Of a DNA stretch of 64,000 bases, positions 13,094 through 19,645 are shown one piece after another (the stretch's first letter is position 1; each line of letters opens with the position of its first letter). The stretch spans positions 14,850 through 78,849 of the forward strand of contig JABMOK010000090.1 in the NCBI GenBank assembly GCA_013204155.1, read 5' to 3'. A model generated the notes under the pieces. That model was not told the DNA's origin. It was given only the letters and a program-made list of their open reading frames with translations, and made no database searches. This DNA is from Pseudohongiella sp. Lineage in GTDB: Bacteria > Pseudomonadota > Gammaproteobacteria > Pseudomonadales > Pseudohongiellaceae. The translations under genes and the position numbers were made by a program.

Positions 13094-13372
13094 ATGCAAG
13101 AACAAGAATGGGATGACTCCATCGAAGACGCCAAAGAATTTTTTGAGGCTGGAGCAATACTGCCCGATGAAGACTCCGAAGAAAAAACACCCAATCCGGT
13201 ATCGAAGTCTCATATTACCGAACTGCGCCGACGCATCGAAGATCGAATCGAAAGCAAACGCATAGCCCAGGAATTCGACTATGACGAACTCGGCGAGCTC
13301 GGTGATTTCGACGACTTCGACGATTTCAACGACTTCGATGATTACGACGAGCTCACCGATAGCCTACAGTAG
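13094..13372 (+). CDS. small highly acidic protein
   Basis: A 92-aa ORF with a central basic helix, ELRRRIEDRIESKRIAQEF, and the tail DELGELGDFDDFDDFNDFDDYDELTDSLQ. It may belong to the PA3496-like small acidic protein family, but that is from memory only. Confidence 0.5.
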   Translation: MQEQEWDDSIEDAKEFFEAGAILPDEDSEEKTPNPVSKSHITELRRRIEDRIESKRIAQEFDYDELGELGDFDDFDDFNDFDDYDELTDSLQ

Positions 13373-13545
13373 GCCTTACTGAGACTTGCCTCCTTCTCCA
13401 GGCGCAGATTGCCAGCTCACTCTGCCAAGCTTCAGGCGTGTCCTGTTAAGGCTCTGTGAGGCTCTGGAAAATCCACAAAAAACCGCTACCAAGTAATCTG
13501 CATAATTAGTATGATTGATGGCTTGTCAGTCTAGAAATATGAACA

Positions 13546-14304
13546 ATGACGTATTGTGTAGCAATATCGGTGGATGCCGGGATGGTGTTTTGCTCGGATT
13601 CACTCACCAACGCTGGCATTGATCAGGTGTCCACTTACAGCAAAATGTTCCACTTTGGAATTGAGGGCGAACGGCAGTTTGTTATTCTCACTGCGGGTAA
13701 TTTAGCCACCAGTCAAGCCACGATAGCCAGAGTTAAAATCGACATTAAGCAGAATGCCGAGGTTAATCTTCTCAATATTGGCAGCATAGAAGAAGCGGCT
13801 GACTATCTGGGAGACCTCAGCCGTGTGCAGCAGGAAAAACGCACAATCGAAGGCAAGAAATTTGAAGCCAGTTTTATTATTGGCGGACAAATTGGTAGTG
13901 CCAAGCACGAAATTATTTTGGTCTATCCGGAAGGGAATCACATTACCACTTCCATGGATACGCCTTATCTTCAGATCGGTGAGAGTAAGTATGGCAAACC
14001 GATACTCGACCGAATTCTAACACCCGCTCTGGATCTGGACACCTGCGCCTTATGCGCCCTCGTATCCATGGATTCAACCCTGAGAAGTAATCTTAGTGTA
14101 GGACCACCGATTGAAACCCTGGTTTATAAAACCGGGAGCCTTACTGTAACCAATTATCACAGATTTGACGGGGACAGTGAATTTTTACGCGACCTGAAAA
14201 AATCCTGGGATCAACTCCTGAAGAACGCCTTTGTGCAATTGCCTCCACTAAAATGGGCAACTAACTGGGATAAATCAGGCCGTGAACGAAGCGGAGCTTC
14301 TTAA
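13546..14304 (+). CDS. Anbu-type proteasome beta-subunit homologue (proteasome-type protease)
   Basis: The N-terminus MTYCVAISVDAGMVFCSDSLTNAG has Thr at position 2, so Thr would be the N-terminal nucleophile after Met removal. Length is 252 aa. It neighbours circularly permuted ATP-grasp and alpha-E genes. Confidence 0.8.
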   Translation: MTYCVAISVDAGMVFCSDSLTNAGIDQVSTYSKMFHFGIEGERQFVILTAGNLATSQATIARVKIDIKQNAEVNLLNIGSIEEAADYLGDLSRVQQEKRTIEGKKFEASFIIGGQIGSAKHEIILVYPEGNHITTSMDTPYLQIGESKYGKPILDRILTPALDLDTCALCALVSMDSTLRSNLSVGPPIETLVYKTGSLTVTNYHRFDGDSEFLRDLKKSWDQLLKNAFVQLPPLKWATNWDKSGRERSGAS

Positions 14305-15259
14305 GCGTCAGCTTCGATAATACAAAGGGGTAAGCATCCTCTAATCCCATACTCCTGTTTAGCGCATTCAAAATAACCGCCAGTTCAGACCACTTGGCGA
14401 GAGTTTCATCGAACTCATCGAAATGTGATGACCCCAGTTTCTGATCGTAGGCAGCGGCGGTATCCAGCGTATCTATCATGTGCAGATAATGCGCCCAAAC
14501 CTCTGCCCAGTCTTCCAGAGGATGGGACTGAGCATAGTGACTAATCATTGCCGGGTCATGGGGAATGGCATCTTTGCTGGCATAGTAGTTCTTTAAAGCC
14601 GCAGCATAGTCTGCCCTTTCATCGCCAAACAGCGCACGGAACCGGGTCAGCAATTCATCGCCGAAAACAAGCTTATCGAAGTAGTAGTGACCGCTCTCGT
14701 GTCGAAAATGCCCGAGCAGAGTGCGATACAATTCACCGGTATAGGCGCGAGTGATTTCCCGATTAACCTTATCCGCTTCCGCTGTATTCACCGTAATCAT
14801 GCCATTGTAATGGCCAGTGGCAACATGCTCCTCGAAAACTCCCGGATTAGTTCGCTGATCCTCGATAAAACTGAATGCCAAACCCTTTGGATCATTAGCC
14901 CTTCCCAACACGGGAAGCTTCAATACCAGCAACGAATATATTAGCCTTCGTTTTGCCTGCTCCAGATTTTTCCACCAACGCCTTCTTTTCGGCTCCAGCA
15001 GATTAGGTATTGTATGGTTCAAACTACAGGACAGGCAGTAAGAGTTTTGCGGTTCGGTCACAAACCAGTTGCACACGTCGAAGTCCGCCGCGTTCTTGCA
15101 AAGTTTTAATTCGACTGAAGCAGAGCAATGAGGGTTCTCATCAGAGAAGGGGTACAACTCGAAAGCCGATGGATCAAACCCCAGTTGGCGATCGCAATTC
15201 AAGCATCGAGTATTCTCGAAAAACAGGGGCTGACCACAACTGCAAGTGAATTTTTTCAT
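14261..15259 (-). CDS. zinc-ribbon plus HExxH putative zinc metallopeptidase
   Basis: N-terminal zinc ribbon CSCGQPLFFENTRCLNC, the HExxH motif in FRHESGHYYF, and a downstream EDWAEVWAHYLH. It follows the alpha-E gene after a 3-bp gap. Confidence 0.75.
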   Translation of the reverse strand: MKKFTCSCGQPLFFENTRCLNCDRQLGFDPSAFELYPFSDENPHCSASVELKLCKNAADFDVCNWFVTEPQNSYCLSCSLNHTIPNLLEPKRRRWWKNLEQAKRRLIYSLLVLKLPVLGRANDPKGLAFSFIEDQRTNPGVFEEHVATGHYNGMITVNTAEADKVNREITRAYTGELYRTLLGHFRHESGHYYFDKLVFGDELLTRFRALFGDERADYAAALKNYYASKDAIPHDPAMISHYAQSHPLEDWAEVWAHYLHMIDTLDTAAAYDQKLGSSHFDEFDETLAKWSELAVILNALNRSMGLEDAYPFVLSKLTLKKLRFVHGLIYPS

Positions 15260-15262
15260 TAA

Positions 15263-16210
15263 TTATTTGTTGGGAAGAAACCAGGTTTTTGCAATTTCCT
15301 GATGGATCATGGCGATCTCCAGCTGTAGACGGTCAATATACGGCAACAACCCCCGATCCAGTAATTGATCGATCTTCCCTTGTCGCACAATCCGCAGCGT
15401 CTTCTCAACTTGTTTGGAAACTTTCGTGTTATTCGGTAATTTCCCCAACACTTTAGTTAAGGTGACTAAAGCATGAGTGACGGCGCGGGGAAATTCCTCA
15501 TCCTGCAACAAAAATTTAACAACATCTTCGGCATTGACCCGGTGCTTAACATTTTGCCGATACATTTGATAAGCGCTCTGGGAACGCAATATATTCATCC
15601 ATAAGGTATTTTCATAGGGTTCGTTGACTTCAGGCAGCACGTCAGCACCGCTCAGCGCGGGTAATAGATTACCTGATCCTACATCGACAATACGGGTGGT
15701 CATGTCAGCGCGTTCCAGACTGCGGCCCAACCGAACGAAGCTATAGGCGGCTCCCCTGCTCATAGAGCCGGCCATGAGCCCGGAAATCTGCTGACAACTG
15801 GCGATTATCTTTTCCAGCAATTCATGCCGCGGTCCTCTGGCAACACCATTAGCCAAATTTTCTTTAGCAAAAAAATACAGATTGTTTATCTGTTCAAACG
15901 CTTCCATGGGCATAATTTCGCGCGTGGTGCGAGCATTCTCACGAGTAAGAGCCAGCATATCGAGTACCGAATAGCCGTTATTGTCGGATAGCAGAAAACG
16001 TATTACGTTGCGTTCCAGCGCCTGCTTGTACTTCGCGTCGAATGCCTCGTCGGTGCCGGTTATCTCCACTAGAGAATGCCAACCCAATTTCGTCCGCGGC
16101 GGAAGGTCCAATAACAGCGTTGAAAATACATTTAACAGGCGCGCCATATTCTCGGCCCGTTCAAGATATCGAGCTTGCCAATAAACACGTTCTGCGACAC
16201 GAGAAAGCAT
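15263..16210 (-). CDS. alpha-E domain protein
   Basis: The N-terminus MLSRVAERVYWQARYLERAENMARLLNV is the characteristic alpha-E (DUF403-type) start. Length is 315 aa, and it lies directly downstream of the ATP-grasp gene. Confidence 0.85.
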   Translation of the reverse strand: MLSRVAERVYWQARYLERAENMARLLNVFSTLLLDLPPRTKLGWHSLVEITGTDEAFDAKYKQALERNVIRFLLSDNNGYSVLDMLALTRENARTTREIMPMEAFEQINNLYFFAKENLANGVARGPRHELLEKIIASCQQISGLMAGSMSRGAAYSFVRLGRSLERADMTTRIVDVGSGNLLPALSGADVLPEVNEPYENTLWMNILRSQSAYQMYRQNVKHRVNAEDVVKFLLQDEEFPRAVTHALVTLTKVLGKLPNNTKVSKQVEKTLRIVRQGKIDQLLDRGLLPYIDRLQLEIAMIHQEIAKTWFLPNK

Positions 16211-16215
16211 AATGT

Positions 16216-17661
16216 CTAATTGTCCCCTACAATCCAGGTATCTTTACTACCGCCACCCTGAGATGAATTAACAATATAAGAGCCTTTAACCATCGCGACT
16301 CGCGTCAGCCCGCCTGCGGTTACATAGGATTTATCGGCCTGCAAGACAAACGGTCGCAAATCTACATGTCTGGGCTCCACCGTCCTGTCGCATAATACGG
16401 GAACCGTGGACAATGAAATCAACGGCTGTGCCATATAATTTCTCGGATCAGCTTTAATCCTGCGGGCAAATTCCGCCAACTCTTTCTTGCTCGCCTGGGG
16501 CCCAATTAACATGCCGTAGCCCCCAGATTCATTGGCAGGCTTCACCACCAACTTATCGAGATTCTGCAATACATACTGCCGCTGCAGTTTGTCGATACAA
16601 AGAAAACTGGGGACATTGGGAAGAATAGGATCTTCACCCAAATAGTATTTAATGAACTGTGGAACATAGGTGTAAATAATTTTATCGTCGGCTACGCCAG
16701 CGCCTGGCGCATTTGCCAAGGCGACATTACCTTTGACCCAGGCTTTGAATAAACCACTGACTCCTAGCACTGAATCTTTGTTGAAAACCGACGGATCCAG
16801 AAATAAGTCATCGATGCGTCTATAGATGACATCTACCTGCGACAAGCCATCAATCGTTTTCATAAATACTTTGTCTTTCTCAACTATCAAGTCACTGCCT
16901 TCCACTAACTCTGCGCCCATTCTCTGCGCCAGATAAGAGTGCTCAAAATAGGCTGAATTAAAAACGCCCGGAGTAAGTACTGCCACCTCAGGATAGTCCG
17001 AGGGACGTGGGGAGATGGCGGCGAGGGTATCGAATAATTGATCTGGGTATTCGGTTATCGGTCGAATATTATAGTCATCTTCGAATAGCTCCGGAAATAT
17101 ACGCTTGGTTACTCTGCGATTCTCCAACATATAGGAGACACCAGATGGCACTCTCAAATTGTCTTCTAAAACGCAAAATTCTCCGCTCCCATCTTTGATC
17201 AAATCGGTGCCACAAATATGAGCCCATACATCAAATCGCGGCTTAATGCCCATACATTCTTTACGGAAATTACTCGAGTTGAGAATTAATTCTTTAGGGA
17301 TAATCTTGTCTTTAAAGATTTTTTGCTCATTATAAATATCGTGAATGAAGCAGTTTAATGCGCGCAATCTTTGTTGCAAACCCAGGCTGGTAGAATTCCA
17401 TTCCTTTTCTGCGATAATTCTCGGAATAATATCGAATGGCCATTCTCTATCGATGTTACCGGCATCGCTGTATACCGTGAAAGAAATTCCCATGGTTTTG
17501 ATAGCAAGCTCTGCCGCCAGCTTCTTTTGCAATAATTCTTCATGGGTAAGCGACTTAAGATGACTGGCCAATCGACGGGAAGGTTGGCGCGCATAACCAG
17601 GAGTGCTGATCATTTCGTCATAAAAGTTTCCCGGATTGTAATTTTTCCAGTTAACGCGCAT
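16216..17661 (-). CDS. circularly permuted type-2 ATP-grasp protein
   Basis: A 481-aa ORF whose N-terminal region, GISFTVYSDAGNIDREWPFDIIPRIIAEKEW, is typical of the family. It has the conserved pairing with an alpha-E gene. Confidence 0.85.
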   Translation of the reverse strand: MRVNWKNYNPGNFYDEMISTPGYARQPSRRLASHLKSLTHEELLQKKLAAELAIKTMGISFTVYSDAGNIDREWPFDIIPRIIAEKEWNSTSLGLQQRLRALNCFIHDIYNEQKIFKDKIIPKELILNSSNFRKECMGIKPRFDVWAHICGTDLIKDGSGEFCVLEDNLRVPSGVSYMLENRRVTKRIFPELFEDDYNIRPITEYPDQLFDTLAAISPRPSDYPEVAVLTPGVFNSAYFEHSYLAQRMGAELVEGSDLIVEKDKVFMKTIDGLSQVDVIYRRIDDLFLDPSVFNKDSVLGVSGLFKAWVKGNVALANAPGAGVADDKIIYTYVPQFIKYYLGEDPILPNVPSFLCIDKLQRQYVLQNLDKLVVKPANESGGYGMLIGPQASKKELAEFARRIKADPRNYMAQPLISLSTVPVLCDRTVEPRHVDLRPFVLQADKSYVTAGGLTRVAMVKGSYIVNSSQGGGSKDTWIVGDN

Positions 17662-17869
17662 ATCGATGGCTCTGAATGGTAGTCCAAGACCTAAGTTAGT
17701 TCATTCCGATGTCGCCCGCAACACATCTGCACATTAGCCAGCATCTCTGTTTGAACGCATCACCCCTTTCCTCTCAATGCCCTGAATAGCAAACCAGGAT
17801 ACTGTTGTGGATTAGTCGTTTAATCTTATCGCTTACAAAAAAGGGGGGCCAAGACAACTCAGAGGAATT

Positions 17870-19645
17870 CTATAGTGGCCACACTACAAGCAATAACGGC
17901 ACAGCCACCGCCACAATAATTATCTCGAGAGGCAAGCCCATGCGCCAGTAATCACCAAATTGATACCCACCTGGCCCCATTATCAGGGCGTTATTCTGAT
18001 GACCTATCGGCGTGAGAAAAGCACATGAGGCGCCGACGGCCACTGCCATCAGGAAGGCATCGGGGTTCACCCCAAGAGTCACAGCAATATTATAGGCGAT
18101 GGGAGCCATCAGGATCGCAGTGGCTGCATTATTCAAGACATCCGATACAGTCATGGTGATAATCAGTAACAAGGCAAGGATTAGTGATGGAGGCAGGTCT
18201 CCCGCTACGGCGAGAATCCCATTTACTAACAGAGTGGTGGTTCCCGTAGTTTCCAGAGCACTGCCAAGAGGTATCATCGCACCAAGCAAAATAACTACCG
18301 GCCAATCTACACCATCATAAAATTCCCTCACCGGAACTATATTTTGCAGCACCATTGCCACCGTCGCCATTCCCAGGGCTAATTGGATGGATACAAATCC
18401 TGAGGCGGTTGCGGCGATTGCAATGACGAAAGTCAGCAGCGCCGGCAGCGCTTTCGACGAGCGGCCTAAGCCCAAATCGCGCGGCGCCAGAGGATAGCAA
18501 TCCAGTTTTATGATGGCGTCCTGTAATTCCTCGGCTTCGCCGTGCAGCAGCAATACATCGCCGACCTCGAATTTAAAATCACGCAAACGATTTCGATGTG
18601 GCGTTCCCGATCGAGAAGCGGCCAGCAAATTCACATCGTATTTTCTATTGAATCGAATCTGGGTTGGAGTTCTACCGAGTATCGGCGAACGAGGCGTTAC
18701 AACGACTTCTGCAATCTGCGAATCTTCCGAATGTAAAATTTCCTTCTGTGCGTTTTCCGCAGAAAGCAGCTGAAAATTGTGAGCACTGACGAAACTGTCT
18801 ATATCGTCATGAGATCCTTGCAGCATAAGCAGGTCATTTACTGCGATTTTATGTCGCCGATAAACAACTGGCATCTTCTCACGTTTATGCACCATGGAAA
18901 GCAAGTCCATTTTCTGCTCGGCTAATGCATCCTTTAGCTCTCCTACTGCCTTGCCAACAAAGCTGGTGTCTTTTGTAACTTTTAATTCAAACAGGTATTT
19001 TTCAATATCAAATAATTCCAAGCCGGTAGTTTGCTTGCGCACCTTAACCAGTTTCCAACCTATTAGCAGCATGAATAGAATACCGCACACAGCAATTCCC
19101 CCGCCTACCGGTGCGAAATCAAACATGGTGAATGCTTCGCCCGTCACTTCCTGTCGATAATTTGCGATGAGAATATTTGGCGGTGTACCGATGAGAGTCA
19201 CCAGACCACCGAGAATTGAACCAAAAGACAGAGGCATTAATACTGTCGCCGGAGCACGACCCGCCTTGGTAGTAGACTGGATAGCGATTGGCATCAATAA
19301 AGCCAACGCCCCCACATTATTCATAAACATAGAAAGAAATGCAGCGAGAAAAGTAAGCACAGCAATATGCAAATAAGGCTGAGAAGAAACCGGCTCGATA
19401 ACACTTGTAATAAATTCAACTGCTCCGGATTTCGTCAGACCGAAGCTAACAATAAGAACCAATACCACCGTAATAGTGGCCGGATTCCCGAACCCGGAAA
19501 ATAATTCCGTCTGCGGTACCAGACCAAAAAAACTGGCCGTAAATAGAGCTCCGAGCGCAACTATGTCATAGCGCCACTTGCCCCATACCAGCAATACCAA
19601 CAGAGAAAAGAGAATCAGCAGCAGAATTATTTGAGCGCCGGTCAT
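17870..19645 (-). CDS. SLC13/DASS-family permease with central TrkA-C domains
   Basis: A 591-aa polytopic membrane protein with two transmembrane bundles flanking a soluble region of about 180 aa (KVTKDTSFVGKAVGELK...GDVLLLHGEAEEL), the TrkA-C arrangement. Confidence 0.8.
   Translation of the reverse strand: MTGAQIILLLILFSLLVLLVWGKWRYDIVALGALFTASFFGLVPQTELFSGFGNPATITVVLVLIVSFGLTKSGAVEFITSVIEPVSSQPYLHIAVLTFLAAFLSMFMNNVGALALLMPIAIQSTTKAGRAPATVLMPLSFGSILGGLVTLIGTPPNILIANYRQEVTGEAFTMFDFAPVGGGIAVCGILFMLLIGWKLVKVRKQTTGLELFDIEKYLFELKVTKDTSFVGKAVGELKDALAEQKMDLLSMVHKREKMPVVYRRHKIAVNDLLMLQGSHDDIDSFVSAHNFQLLSAENAQKEILHSEDSQIAEVVVTPRSPILGRTPTQIRFNRKYDVNLLAASRSGTPHRNRLRDFKFEVGDVLLLHGEAEELQDAIIKLDCYPLAPRDLGLGRSSKALPALLTFVIAIAATASGFVSIQLALGMATVAMVLQNIVPVREFYDGVDWPVVILLGAMIPLGSALETTGTTTLLVNGILAVAGDLPPSLILALLLIITMTVSDVLNNAATAILMAPIAYNIAVTLGVNPDAFLMAVAVGASCAFLTPIGHQNNALIMGPGGYQFGDYWRMGLPLEIIIVAVAVPLLLVVWPL

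Follow-up and report, generated by a model that had tools for sequence, protein, structure and literature searches.

A gammaproteobacterial Anbu locus with a zinc-ribbon Peptidase_Mx gene in the position of the transglutaminase-like gene

Introduction

In the classic Anbu operon, known for example from the P. aeruginosa PA1733 region and from Yersinia bercovieri, genes for a COG2308 ATP-grasp protein, a COG2307 Alpha-E protein and a COG1305 transglutaminase-like (TGase) protein are accompanied by the gene for Anbu. Anbu assembles from multiple subunits into a large split-ring that contains many active sites, from which processive protein degradation was inferred by the authors, and Pa-Anbu is modified by proteasome inhibitors (PMC5666114). 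Anbu proteins did not act on the usual substrates of proteasomes; Anbu systems are not known to have a substrate, an adduct or an activity, and no complexes among the operon proteins have been detected (PMC6376114, PMC5666114). [quoted passage not shown] A tag/peptide-ligation step was proposed by Iyer et al. 2009, as relayed in PMC5666114, PMC6376114 and PMC3495828, and the TGL domain is predicted to reverse tags ligated by ATP-grasp (PMC3495828).

A second related arrangement is the large DUF2126 system of Burkholderiales and Marinobacter loci. It is comprised of a TGase-N domain joined with a circularly permuted glutamine-synthetase-like amidoligase, a fused ATP-grasp-Alpha-E protein and a stand-alone TGase.

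Here we describe a locus in which the third gene after ATP-grasp and Alpha-E, the position taken by TGase in the classic operon, encodes a Peptidase_Mx protein (Mx). The locus probably represents, in complete form, a conserved sub-type of circularly permuted ATP-grasp/Alpha-E amidoligase-peptidase systems that is found mostly in gammaproteobacteria. No publication on the Mx-type Anbu variant was found in a literature comparison that covered sources other than Iyer et al. 2009.

Results and discussion

Organization of the locus

The 64-kb stretch of DNA analysed as a whole, hereafter the window, originates from a Pseudohongiella-like marine gammaproteobacterial MAG. ATP-grasp, Alpha-E and Mx follow one another in a tightly packed three-gene operon on the minus strand, and Anbu is located on the plus strand. 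The features are as follows:

13507..13518, plus strand: TAGTATGATTGA motif, candidate -10 region of an Anbu-specific promoter (aligned sequences upstream of Anbu)
13546..14304, plus strand: Anbu, proteasome-beta-like Ntn hydrolase, 252 aa; separate transcription unit that converges on Mx (phmmer matches to Anbu in PDB)
14261..14304: tail-to-tail Anbu/Mx coding overlap, 44 nt (ORF coordinates)
14261..15259, minus strand: operon gene 3, double zinc-ribbon and Peptidase_Mx, predicted zincin, 332 aa (PF10005 and PF15887)
15263..16210, minus strand: operon gene 2, Alpha-E, helical partner of ATP-grasp, 315 aa (Pfam PF04168)
16216..17661, minus strand: operon gene 1, circularly permuted ATP-grasp, predicted ATP-dependent amide ligase, 481 aa (Pfam PF14403, PF04174)
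17662..17869, minus strand: 208-bp intergenic region, presumed promoter region of the three-gene operon (position 5' of ATP-grasp)

Gaps in the operon are 5 bp (16211-16215, ATP-grasp/Alpha-E) and 3 bp (15260-15262, Alpha-E/Mx) long. These gaps, the ORF positions and the opposite strand of Anbu are exactly as given in an earlier note on this DNA, whose family assignments also proved right in Pfam searches or, for Anbu, by homology to solved Anbu structures. The same note had reported a missing transglutaminase-like gene; in agreement, a jackhmmer profile built on TGase and DUF2126 proteins of confirmed identity disclosed no TGase (COG1305) or DUF2126 gene in six-frame ORFs of the window. A fused ATP-grasp-Alpha-E was likewise not found within it, and PADLOC models of anti-phage defence systems matched none of the four proteins. 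Twenty-one independent metagenome or MAG contigs carry the same locus.

Protein components

ATP-grasp matches PF14403 (E 7.8e-163) and PF04174 (E 1.5e-136) with full-length coverage of the profile, and Alpha-E matches PF04168 (E 4.2e-80) along profile positions 1-294 of 294, which assigns the pair to the CP_ATPgrasp_2/Alpha-E amidoligase systems. N-terminal motifs of Alpha-E are ...AERVYWQARYLERAEN... ER.

In Mx, the Pfam domains PF10005 Zn_ribbon_DZR_6 (E 8e-19, 68.5 bits vs a cut-off of 23.4) and PF15887 Peptidase_Mx (E 8e-87, 291 bits vs a cut-off of 27) were identified. The combination of the two corresponds to the former DUF2248, of COG4307 type. Zinc-ribbon cysteines are Cys6/8/19/22 and Cys54/63/75/78, and the HESGH motif occupies residues 187-191 within FRHESGHYYF. 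In an alignment of 61 homologues, six of the eight cysteines are invariant, as are H187, E188, H191, H246, E249, D250, E253, H257 and H260. Peptidase activity of Mx is a prediction. The AF2 model has a mean pLDDT of 84.8, and its best Foldseek match in PDB is the anthrax lethal factor, although weak and non-significant (E 0.06, TM ~0.27). Neither a sequence relative of Mx in PDB nor a characterised Peptidase_Mx member in the searched literature was found.

Anbu has no Pfam or NCBIfam match. Its similarity to PDB entries 5loy, 5nyw, 5lox, 5nyj and 5nyf (phmmer, E 2.6e-67 to 3.3e-51) covers query residues 2-237 and chain residues 1-241, including the region of the C-terminal H5 extension. The protein begins with MTYCVA, so that Thr follows directly after the initiator Met with no propeptide. 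T1, D17 and K32 align with their counterparts in Pa-Anbu, and no full-length sequence in the comparison deviates at these positions; as judged by these residues, the window Anbu is catalytically intact. The Ntn fold and Thr nucleophile, on which the earlier note had made its proposal depend, are thus indicated by full-length homology to solved Anbu and by Thr1, Asp17 and Lys32. The S1 pocket aligned as T20, Y30, T48, L52 and S55 is hydrophobic and resembles that of Anbu-1 (T20/F30/T48/L52/S55), the pocket of Anbu-2 being basic (I20-A29-R46-R50-T53; PMC5666114).

Survey of related loci

The frequency and orientation of the variant, a survey suggested in the earlier note, were assessed in 80 Mx loci of distinct species and compared with 12 Anbu loci on PLSDB replicons; since the former are those most similar to the query and the latter come from a plasmid/chromid collection, the frequencies are not population estimates. 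Anbu is present in 26 of the 80 Mx loci, in all 26 on the strand opposite to Mx. Its linkage with the operon, which the earlier note had considered might be limited to this genome, therefore recurs in other species. Two architectures are repeatedly observed (AG, ATP-grasp; aE, Alpha-E): AG>aE>Mx><Anbu in 13 clean loci, accompanied by partial ones, and Mx><Anbu AG>aE> in eight. The Mx><Anbu pair remains constant while the AG-aE pair switches side. It is kept down to ~43% Mx identity, and the arrangement extends through Pseudomonadales, Cellvibrionales, Alteromonadales, Chromatiales-like and other lineages.

Mx stands alone in 28 of the 80 loci. Mx or the ATP-grasp/Alpha-E pair of Mx type has, in many other genomes, DUF2126 proteins with an N-terminal TGase domain and separate TGase genes as neighbours, and such pairs are found without Anbu as well. 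Mx thus substitutes for TGase neither obligatorily nor exclusively. The earlier note spoke of a swapped protease; given the many genomes in which Mx adjoins TGase-domain proteins, Mx is not strictly an alternative to TGase domains. Among loci with both Anbu and Mx, TGase or DUF2126 was found in L083 only. The classic co-directional AG>aE>TGase>Anbu order characterizes 9 of the 12 PLSDB loci, and Mx is absent from all 12.

Anbu/Mx overlap and transcription signals

In other genomes, the 3' ends of adjacent Mx><Anbu genes overlap by 4-110 nt in 18 of 23 pairs, and the overlap is again exactly 44 nt in loci L007-L011, L013 and L016. The C-terminus of Mx is conserved to the final residue, and so, within the Pseudohongiella-like group, is the ...W(A/S)xNWD... 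tail of Anbu. The 44-nt overlap, a detail absent from the earlier note, leaves no room between the genes for a terminator, and the 3' ends of the Anbu and operon mRNAs should accordingly be complementary to each other.

Because Anbu is encoded on the opposite strand, its co-transcription with the operon is excluded. About 28 nt upstream of its start, the TAGTATGATTGA motif is common to the window, L007, L008, L009, L011 and L012, while the remainder of the spacer is not conserved. The motif may represent the -10 element of an Anbu-specific promoter, as suggested by this conservation; a scan with the sigma-70 consensus did not pick it up. The 208-bp region upstream of ATP-grasp is not conserved among relatives and has no match to the sigma-54 -24/-12 pattern. 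Comparison of the two upstream regions, of Anbu and of the operon, revealed neither a sigma-54 promoter nor any significant shared motif.

Proposed function

We infer that the module combines ATP-dependent amide ligation with hydrolysis by two unrelated peptidases. ATP-grasp with Alpha-E would consume ATP to join an amide to a carboxylate group of its substrate, a peptide or a protein, which corresponds to the ligation step put forward by Iyer et al. 2009. Mx could hydrolyse or trim the ligated amide, as has been suggested for the transglutaminase-like cysteine peptidase of the classic operon, and its zinc-ribbons may recognise the substrate. Anbu, presumably transcribed from its own promoter, would serve as second peptidase, an oligomeric threonine enzyme, in degrading or processing the product. 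That either a TGase-like cysteine hydrolase or a zincin, which are unrelated in fold, can fill the slot argues that it belongs to a hydrolase and not to a cross-linker.

The gene content is equally compatible with a module that makes and recycles a small peptide or amino-acid conjugate instead of protein tags, for example a gamma-glutamyl-type or a storage/osmolyte compound tied to nitrogen economy. ATP-grasp and Alpha-E would then synthesise this conjugate, and Mx and Anbu would be the degrading amidases. We consider this alternative possible, if rather unlikely. It is in line with the characterisation of ATP-grasp as glutathione-synthetase-like (PMC6376114, PMC3235984), with the classic operon being the most strongly induced one when Pseudomonas putida is limited for nitrogen (note added in proof of PMC3235984; PMC5666114), and with the lack of Anbu activity towards the usual peptide substrates of proteasomes (PMC6376114). 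A gene for a DASS/CitMHS transporter located immediately upstream in the window points in the same direction, but this neighbour is conserved only in close relatives. Also against it, biosynthetic genes for unusual amino acids do not accompany the module in the surveyed loci, and the large Anbu split-ring was taken to indicate processive protein degradation (PMC5666114).

In a further reading, the peptidase adjacent to Anbu, Mx here and TGase-like in the classic operon, might be the missing partner of Anbu, with the mx/anbu overlap as an antisense device. We regard this as doubtful. If true, the adjacent peptidase would prepare or deliver substrates to the otherwise inactive Anbu ring, or activate the ring, and the conserved tail-to-tail overlap would be a built-in means of balancing both proteases. 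The Mx-type module would then be the simplest system for finding the substrate of Anbu, being minimal, with four genes and neither TGase nor DUF2126, and occurring in Alteromonas and Marinimicrobium, which can be cultured.

Age of the sub-type

All trees were constructed by NJ only. Mx-linked Anbu is split from TGase-linked Anbu in 100/100 NJ bootstraps, and the window Anbu belongs to the Mx/DUF2126-linked clade. Mx-linked and classic clades are separate and deep, with a mean identity between groups of 42%; alignment shows R31S, L191P and D194E as group-specific Anbu residues of the former. The ATP-grasp tree has three clades that match the gene context (Mx-linked, classic TGase/Anbu-operon, and fused DUF2126-system), and the window sequence falls in the first, apart from the other two. 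The same type-A and type-B groups appear in the Mx tree, and the Anbu, ATP-grasp and Mx clades of the Mx type are mutually congruent. Separate clades of Mx-linked Anbu and ATP-grasp indicate an old co-inherited sub-type and not a recent swap, and all four genes have been inherited together in the two recurrent architectures. This conserved variant of the Anbu cluster provides a new comparative handle on the Anbu system.

The "swapped protease" of the earlier note is accordingly correct in that Mx fills the operon position of TGase, but not in the sense of a local replacement. A recent event in this lineage, with loss of TGase from a classic AG-aE-TGase-Anbu operon, acquisition of Mx and inversion of Anbu, would explain why Mx sits in exactly the third-gene slot. 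It is nevertheless very unlikely, being largely refuted by the trees, where Anbu and ATP-grasp of Mx loci are not nested in classic clades; the spread of the arrangement over several lineages in two architectures, and the Mx-type ATP-grasp/Alpha-E pairs that lack Anbu and adjoin DUF2126, also speak against it. That Anbu is a mere syntenic neighbour, functionally unrelated to the AG-aE-Mx operon, could be suggested by its separate transcription unit on the opposite strand, by the lack of a detected shared motif in the two upstream regions and by the many loci with Mx, AG and aE but no Anbu, yet it is extremely unlikely in view of a Mx><Anbu pair that persists at low Mx identity and when AG-aE changes side, of the congruent component phylogenies, and of the classic operon, which independently links Anbu to AG/aE (PLSDB loci; PMC3235984).

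Comparison with known systems

Mx shares the HExxH motif with anthrax lethal factor/MtfA-like zincins, and a relationship with them was predicted for DUF2248 by FFAS (PMC3650047). It differs in its N-terminal double zinc-ribbon and in being cytosolic.

The Pup-proteasome system of actinobacteria couples PafA/Dop, a glutamine-synthetase-like ligase/deamidase, with the 20S proteasome. The proposed logic of an ATP-dependent amide ligase, an amidase and a proteasome-family peptidase is the same. In contrast, the ligase has the ATP-grasp fold and not the GS-like one, Anbu is a single-gene split-ring assembly, and the Anbu module encodes neither an AAA+ unfoldase nor an identified tag protein.

Mx is found adjacent to the DUF2126 system, as is the Mx-type ATP-grasp/Alpha-E pair in several genomes (L039, L046, L051, L053, L062, L079, L080 and others). 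Two loci, L083 and L094 of an Acidithiobacillus caldus megaplasmid, have Anbu of the Mx-type clade beside DUF2126. The window is distinguished by having no DUF2126, fused ATP-grasp-Alpha-E or TGase within 64 kb.

As in the classic Anbu operon, genes of the same ATP-grasp and Alpha-E families are adjacent in that order with little space between them, Anbu carries Thr1/Asp17/Lys32 and has a hydrophobic S1 pocket like that of Anbu-1, and a peptidase-type gene adjoins Anbu. The locus differs in the third gene, a predicted zinc-ribbon zincin instead of a transglutaminase-like cysteine peptidase, and in the separate clades of its ATP-grasp and of its Anbu, the latter with the R31S, L191P and D194E changes. 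Finally, whereas the classic Anbu is the co-directional last gene, that of the window is convergent and overlaps Mx by 44 nt.

Organization of the four-gene module

The module comprises Anbu on one strand and three closely packed genes on the other, with intergenic gaps of 5 and 3 bp among the latter:

13546-14304, plus strand, Anbu, 252 aa, starting MTYCVA
14261-15259, minus strand, zinc-ribbon/HExxH protein (Mx), 332 aa, containing ...GHFRHESGHYYF...
15263-16210, minus strand, Alpha-E, 315 aa
16216-17661, minus strand, circularly permuted ATP-grasp, 481 aa

Coordinates, packing, and the opposite strand of Anbu agree with the ORFs described in the earlier note. The proposed families of the minus-strand products are borne out by Pfam HMMs, all far over curated cut-offs: ATP-grasp (PF14403, E 8e-163; PF04174, E 1.5e-136), Alpha-E (PF04168, E 4e-80), and Mx (PF10005, E 8e-19; PF15887, E 8e-87). 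The 252-aa protein has no match in Pfam or NCBIfam. Its identity as Anbu stands on homology to all solved Anbu sequences in the PDB, which match it over approximately the full length (E 2.6e-67 to 3.3e-51; the best is the designed consensus Anbu-1, 5loy, E 2.6e-67), and its Thr1, Asp17, and Lys32 align with those of Pa-Anbu. The S1 pocket (T20, Y30, T48, L52, S55) is of the hydrophobic Anbu-1 type defined in PMC5666114. The sequence features that define Anbu, circularly permuted ATP-grasp, Alpha-E, and Peptidase_Mx were all found in the module. None of the four proteins matches a PADLOC model, and the reading as a defence system was rejected.

The window and its six closest relatives have Leu (DSLTN) at Anbu residue 19 (window 13600-13602, counted without Met), which adjoins the S1-pocket residue Thr20. 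All classic Anbu and most Mx-linked Anbu compared carry Arg19 there (DSRTN motif).

To search for transglutaminase-like (TGase) and DUF2126 genes, proteins of another locus confirmed by Pfam were turned into jackhmmer profiles and run against six-frame ORFs. Neither was found in any six-frame ORF of the 64-kb window, confirming the lack of a transglutaminase-like gene proposed earlier.

An identical four-gene locus is present on 21 metagenome or MAG contigs, and annotation of the separate genes in public genomes is routine. In five of the six metagenome contigs shown (loci L002-L006), the Anbu start (window 13546-13581) has been placed at Met13, giving 240 aa, and the 252-aa MTYCVA call was made in only one. 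A call from Met13 deletes the catalytic Thr1; that the longer one is right is shown by homology with solved Anbu and by the MT start, which relatives keep without exception. Gene callers often drop the catalytic Thr of this Anbu type, which is an annotation problem.

The predicted metallopeptidase Mx

Residues H187, E188, H191, H246, E249, D250, E253, H257, and H260 of Mx are kept in 61 homologues. Of its eight ribbon cysteines, those at 19, 22, 54, 63, 75, and 78 never vary in the same set, and Cys6 and Cys8 are nearly invariant. AlphaFold2 models the protein with confidence (mean pLDDT 84.8, pTM 0.85). No solved relative with a significant match was revealed in the PDB by Foldseek (model) or phmmer (sequence). 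The best Foldseek match, anthrax lethal factor, is non-significant (E 0.06, TM ~0.27) and in line with PMC3650047, where FFAS likewise pointed to anthrax lethal factor for DUF2248, the former name of Mx. Nothing resembling a signal peptide was detected in the N-terminal sequence. Experimental studies of any Peptidase_Mx member are apparently absent from the searchable literature.

Predicted activity

Structures have been solved for Anbu, a widespread relative of the proteasome, and the functional clue to it lies in its operon partners and nothing else. Family proposals of Iyer et al. 2009, in the form summarised in PMC5666114, PMC6376114, and PMC3495828, envisage ligation and then peptidase action. 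Following this scheme, ATP-grasp and Alpha-E would spend ATP to form an amide bond on a carboxylate of a peptide or protein, the peptidase occupying the Mx slot would trim or reverse the amide modification, and Anbu would process or degrade the resulting product. The main rival reading, in which a small peptide or conjugate is made and recycled in connection with nitrogen economy, is less likely but plausible.

Mx loci across species

The Mx family comprises at least 8000 clusters at 90% identity, and a scan of one genome per species revealed a relative in at least 599 species. The 80 Mx loci most similar to the window Mx (42-66% identity) were fetched with 10-kb flanks, and six relevant families were mapped onto them. 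They derive from Gamma-, Beta-, and Alphaproteobacteria, Bacteroidota, Planctomycetota, Verrucomicrobiota, Acidobacteriota, and others.

Table. Gene context of the 80 sampled Mx loci
Anbu present; 26/80; always on the strand opposite to Mx
Mx with ATP-grasp and Alpha-E, without Anbu; 11/80; 5 of the 11 also with DUF2126
Mx beside or within the large DUF2126 / fused ATP-grasp-Alpha-E / TGase system; ~19/80; overlaps other rows, includes Anbu locus L083
Mx with a TGase-family gene, without DUF2126; 4 further loci; L021, L055, L059, L077
Mx with none of ATP-grasp, Alpha-E, TGase, DUF2126, or Anbu within 9 kb; 28/80

The linkage claimed for Anbu and the minus-strand genes is accordingly not limited to this genome. 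Since it recurs in 26 of the 80 Mx loci, from many species and always on opposite strands, a chance neighbourhood of Anbu and the Mx operon is poorly supported. The window order, AG>aE>Mx><Anbu (AG, ATP-grasp; aE, Alpha-E), is shared by 13 complete loci and three on truncated contigs, and eight loci have Mx><Anbu AG>aE>; the Anbu gene of L022 and L083 stands 2-3.4 kb apart. Because the ATP-grasp/Alpha-E pair can stand on either side, the convergent Mx><Anbu pair is the constant element.

Carriers of both Anbu and Mx among the 26 loci are nearly all Gammaproteobacteria, including Pseudohongiella-like MAGs, Marinimicrobium locisalis, Alteromonas, Paraglaciecola, Sedimenticola, and Ectothiorhodospiraceae, with one MAG labelled Nitrospirota. 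The module therein offers a minimal four-gene experimental system in culturable marine bacteria. In the Nitrospirota-labelled MAG (L020, 3934-4810) Anbu is broken into two ORFs, pointing to a frameshift, a pseudogene, or an error in assembly; as this is the sole non-gammaproteobacterial label, mis-binning is possible.

Two Marinobacter loci (L051, L053; 10001-20400) carry six co-directional genes, Mx > ATP-grasp > Alpha-E > TGase-DUF2126 > fused ATP-grasp-Alpha-E > TGase, without Anbu, indicating that Mx can stand first in the large DUF2126 system. The 28 loci with solitary Mx (L024, L029, L030, L035, L045, L050, L054, L056, and L060 among them) include many from Bacteroidota, Planctomycetota, Verrucomicrobiota, and Burkholderiales. 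Members of the Mx family may therefore function apart from amidoligase systems, or their partner genes may lie at other sites.

Divergence of Anbu and ATP-grasp

In distance trees of samples chosen by gene context, Anbu sequences linked to Mx or DUF2126 (L083, L094) split from TGase-linked and PDB sequences, the separation of Mx-type from classic Anbu being recovered in 100/100 bootstraps (NJ). Mean identity is 53% inside the Mx type, 50% inside the classic type, and 42% between them. Diagnostic changes are R31 in classic versus S31 in Mx-type Anbu, directly preceding the catalytic Lys32, as well as L191 versus P191 and D194 versus E194 (Pa-Anbu numbering), so that residues tracking partner type are now listed (R31S, L191P, D194E). 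The ATP-grasp tree shows the same partition in three clades: fused/DUF2126-system, classic Anbu-operon, and Mx-linked. Type-A and type-B groups were recovered in the Mx tree. Roughly one fifth of 69 full-length Anbu-family representatives at 50% identity fall with the Mx/DUF2126-linked clade, a rough share as the representatives were ranked by similarity to the window Anbu.

To gene content, catalytic motifs, and conserved linkage, the trees add co-evolution. The separate Anbu and ATP-grasp clades argue for an old sub-type whose components have apparently been inherited together. A recent local swap of TGase for Mx, poorly supported on account of these same clades, had been implied by the earlier description of a swapped protease and reoriented Anbu; the arrangement is indeed a variant, and apparently not one that arose by recent replacement in this genome.

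Convergent overlap and upstream sequences

The 3' ends of the convergent Anbu and Mx genes overlap by 44 nt, a point missing from the earlier note. Exactly the same overlap exists in seven other loci (L007-L011, L013, L016), and of 23 Mx><Anbu pairs that directly adjoin, 18 share 4-110 nt and the other five are spaced by 0-66 nt. Mx is conserved down to its final residue (...KLRFVHGLIYPS), and the overlapping Anbu tail has a ...WAxNWD... motif within the Pseudohongiella-like group. Predicted sigma-70 promoters and terminators did not exceed shuffled expectation in number, and none lies between Anbu and Mx. Without space for a terminator there, each transcript must read antisense through the other gene, which may be relevant to regulation; invariant opposite orientation and frequent 3' overlap make this a concrete, testable feature.

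An element, TAGTATGATTGA, about 28 nt 5' of the Anbu start is conserved in the window and five relatives, consistent with a candidate promoter of Anbu's own. Because the classic operon is nitrogen-regulated in Pseudomonas (PMC3235984; PMC5666114), sigma-54 -24/-12 sites were also sought: 39 matches were obtained versus 39.8 expected, none upstream of ATP-grasp or Anbu. One shared 9-mer, AATCCACAA, is present in the same orientation 5' of the ATP-grasp operon (17785-17793) and of Anbu (13470-13478). As a shared regulatory motif it was rejected as not significant (3 shared 8-mers versus ~1 expected, up to six in shuffles). It shows no clear conservation among relatives, and the sequence 5' of ATP-grasp shows none.

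Directly 5' of Anbu on the same strand (13094-13372, plus) lies a gene for a very acidic 92-aa protein of the NCBIfam PA3496 family (E 1e-6), with a DFDDFDDFNDFDDYDE tail and the terminus ...DSLQ; its C-terminal Gln resembles Pup. A role as Pup-like tag was rejected: the gene adjoins Anbu only in the closest relatives (L007-L012), probably reflecting local synteny. The gene directly 5' of ATP-grasp (17870-19645, minus), on the same strand, encodes an anion transporter of the CitMHS/DASS type with a TrkA_C domain; a G/C-rich stretch and a T-run follow it. Conservation of the transporter at this position is limited to the close relatives L007-L011 (69-82% identity) and, far less strongly, L013.

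Comparison with classic Anbu operons

A tblastn search of PLSDB replicons with consensus Anbu gave 27 full-length matches, of which 12 from different genera were taken. The classic co-directional operon AG>aE>TGase>Anbu was found in nine (Ralstonia, Aeromonas, Acinetobacter, Klebsiella, Caballeronia, Limimaricola, Paracoccus, Methylobacterium, Burkholderia) and a solitary Anbu gene in two. In the remaining one, from the Acidithiobacillus caldus megaplasmid, two copies of Anbu adjoin TGase, DUF2126, ATP-grasp, and Alpha-E. Mx is absent from all 12. On this megaplasmid (L094, 3257-14717), where the locus with its two copies adjoins ntrBC genes and IS elements, and in the Mx locus L083 (11006-15191), Anbu of the Mx-type clade stands beside DUF2126, a protein made up of TGase-N and a glutamine-synthetase-like amidoligase; the two loci may form a bridge from the minimal Mx-Anbu module to the large DUF2126 system.

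The Anbu papers PMC3235984, PMC5666114, PMC6376114, and PMC8665760 describe no metallopeptidase partner and no inverted Anbu. Valas & Bourne reported a TGase in every genome with Anbu. A full-text search of the literature yielded nothing tying Anbu to Peptidase_Mx/DUF2248; an earlier mention in Iyer et al. 2009 is possible. For the TGL domain, a hydrolytic role was predicted by Aravind and colleagues (PMC3495828). The slot beside Anbu can hold either a zincin or a TGase-like cysteine protein, which supports a hydrolytic, not a cross-linking, slot, and a second, anciently separate module type that retains ATP-grasp, Alpha-E, and Anbu but has a zincin narrows the role, pointing to amide hydrolysis over cross-linking. 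What is gained from the Mx variant is a sharper comparative constraint.

The TGase gene and a co-directional Anbu are defining features of the classic operon, whereas the window module is without a TGase gene and has Anbu on the opposite strand. It is a sub-type distinct from the classic operon, and is predicted to work like it.
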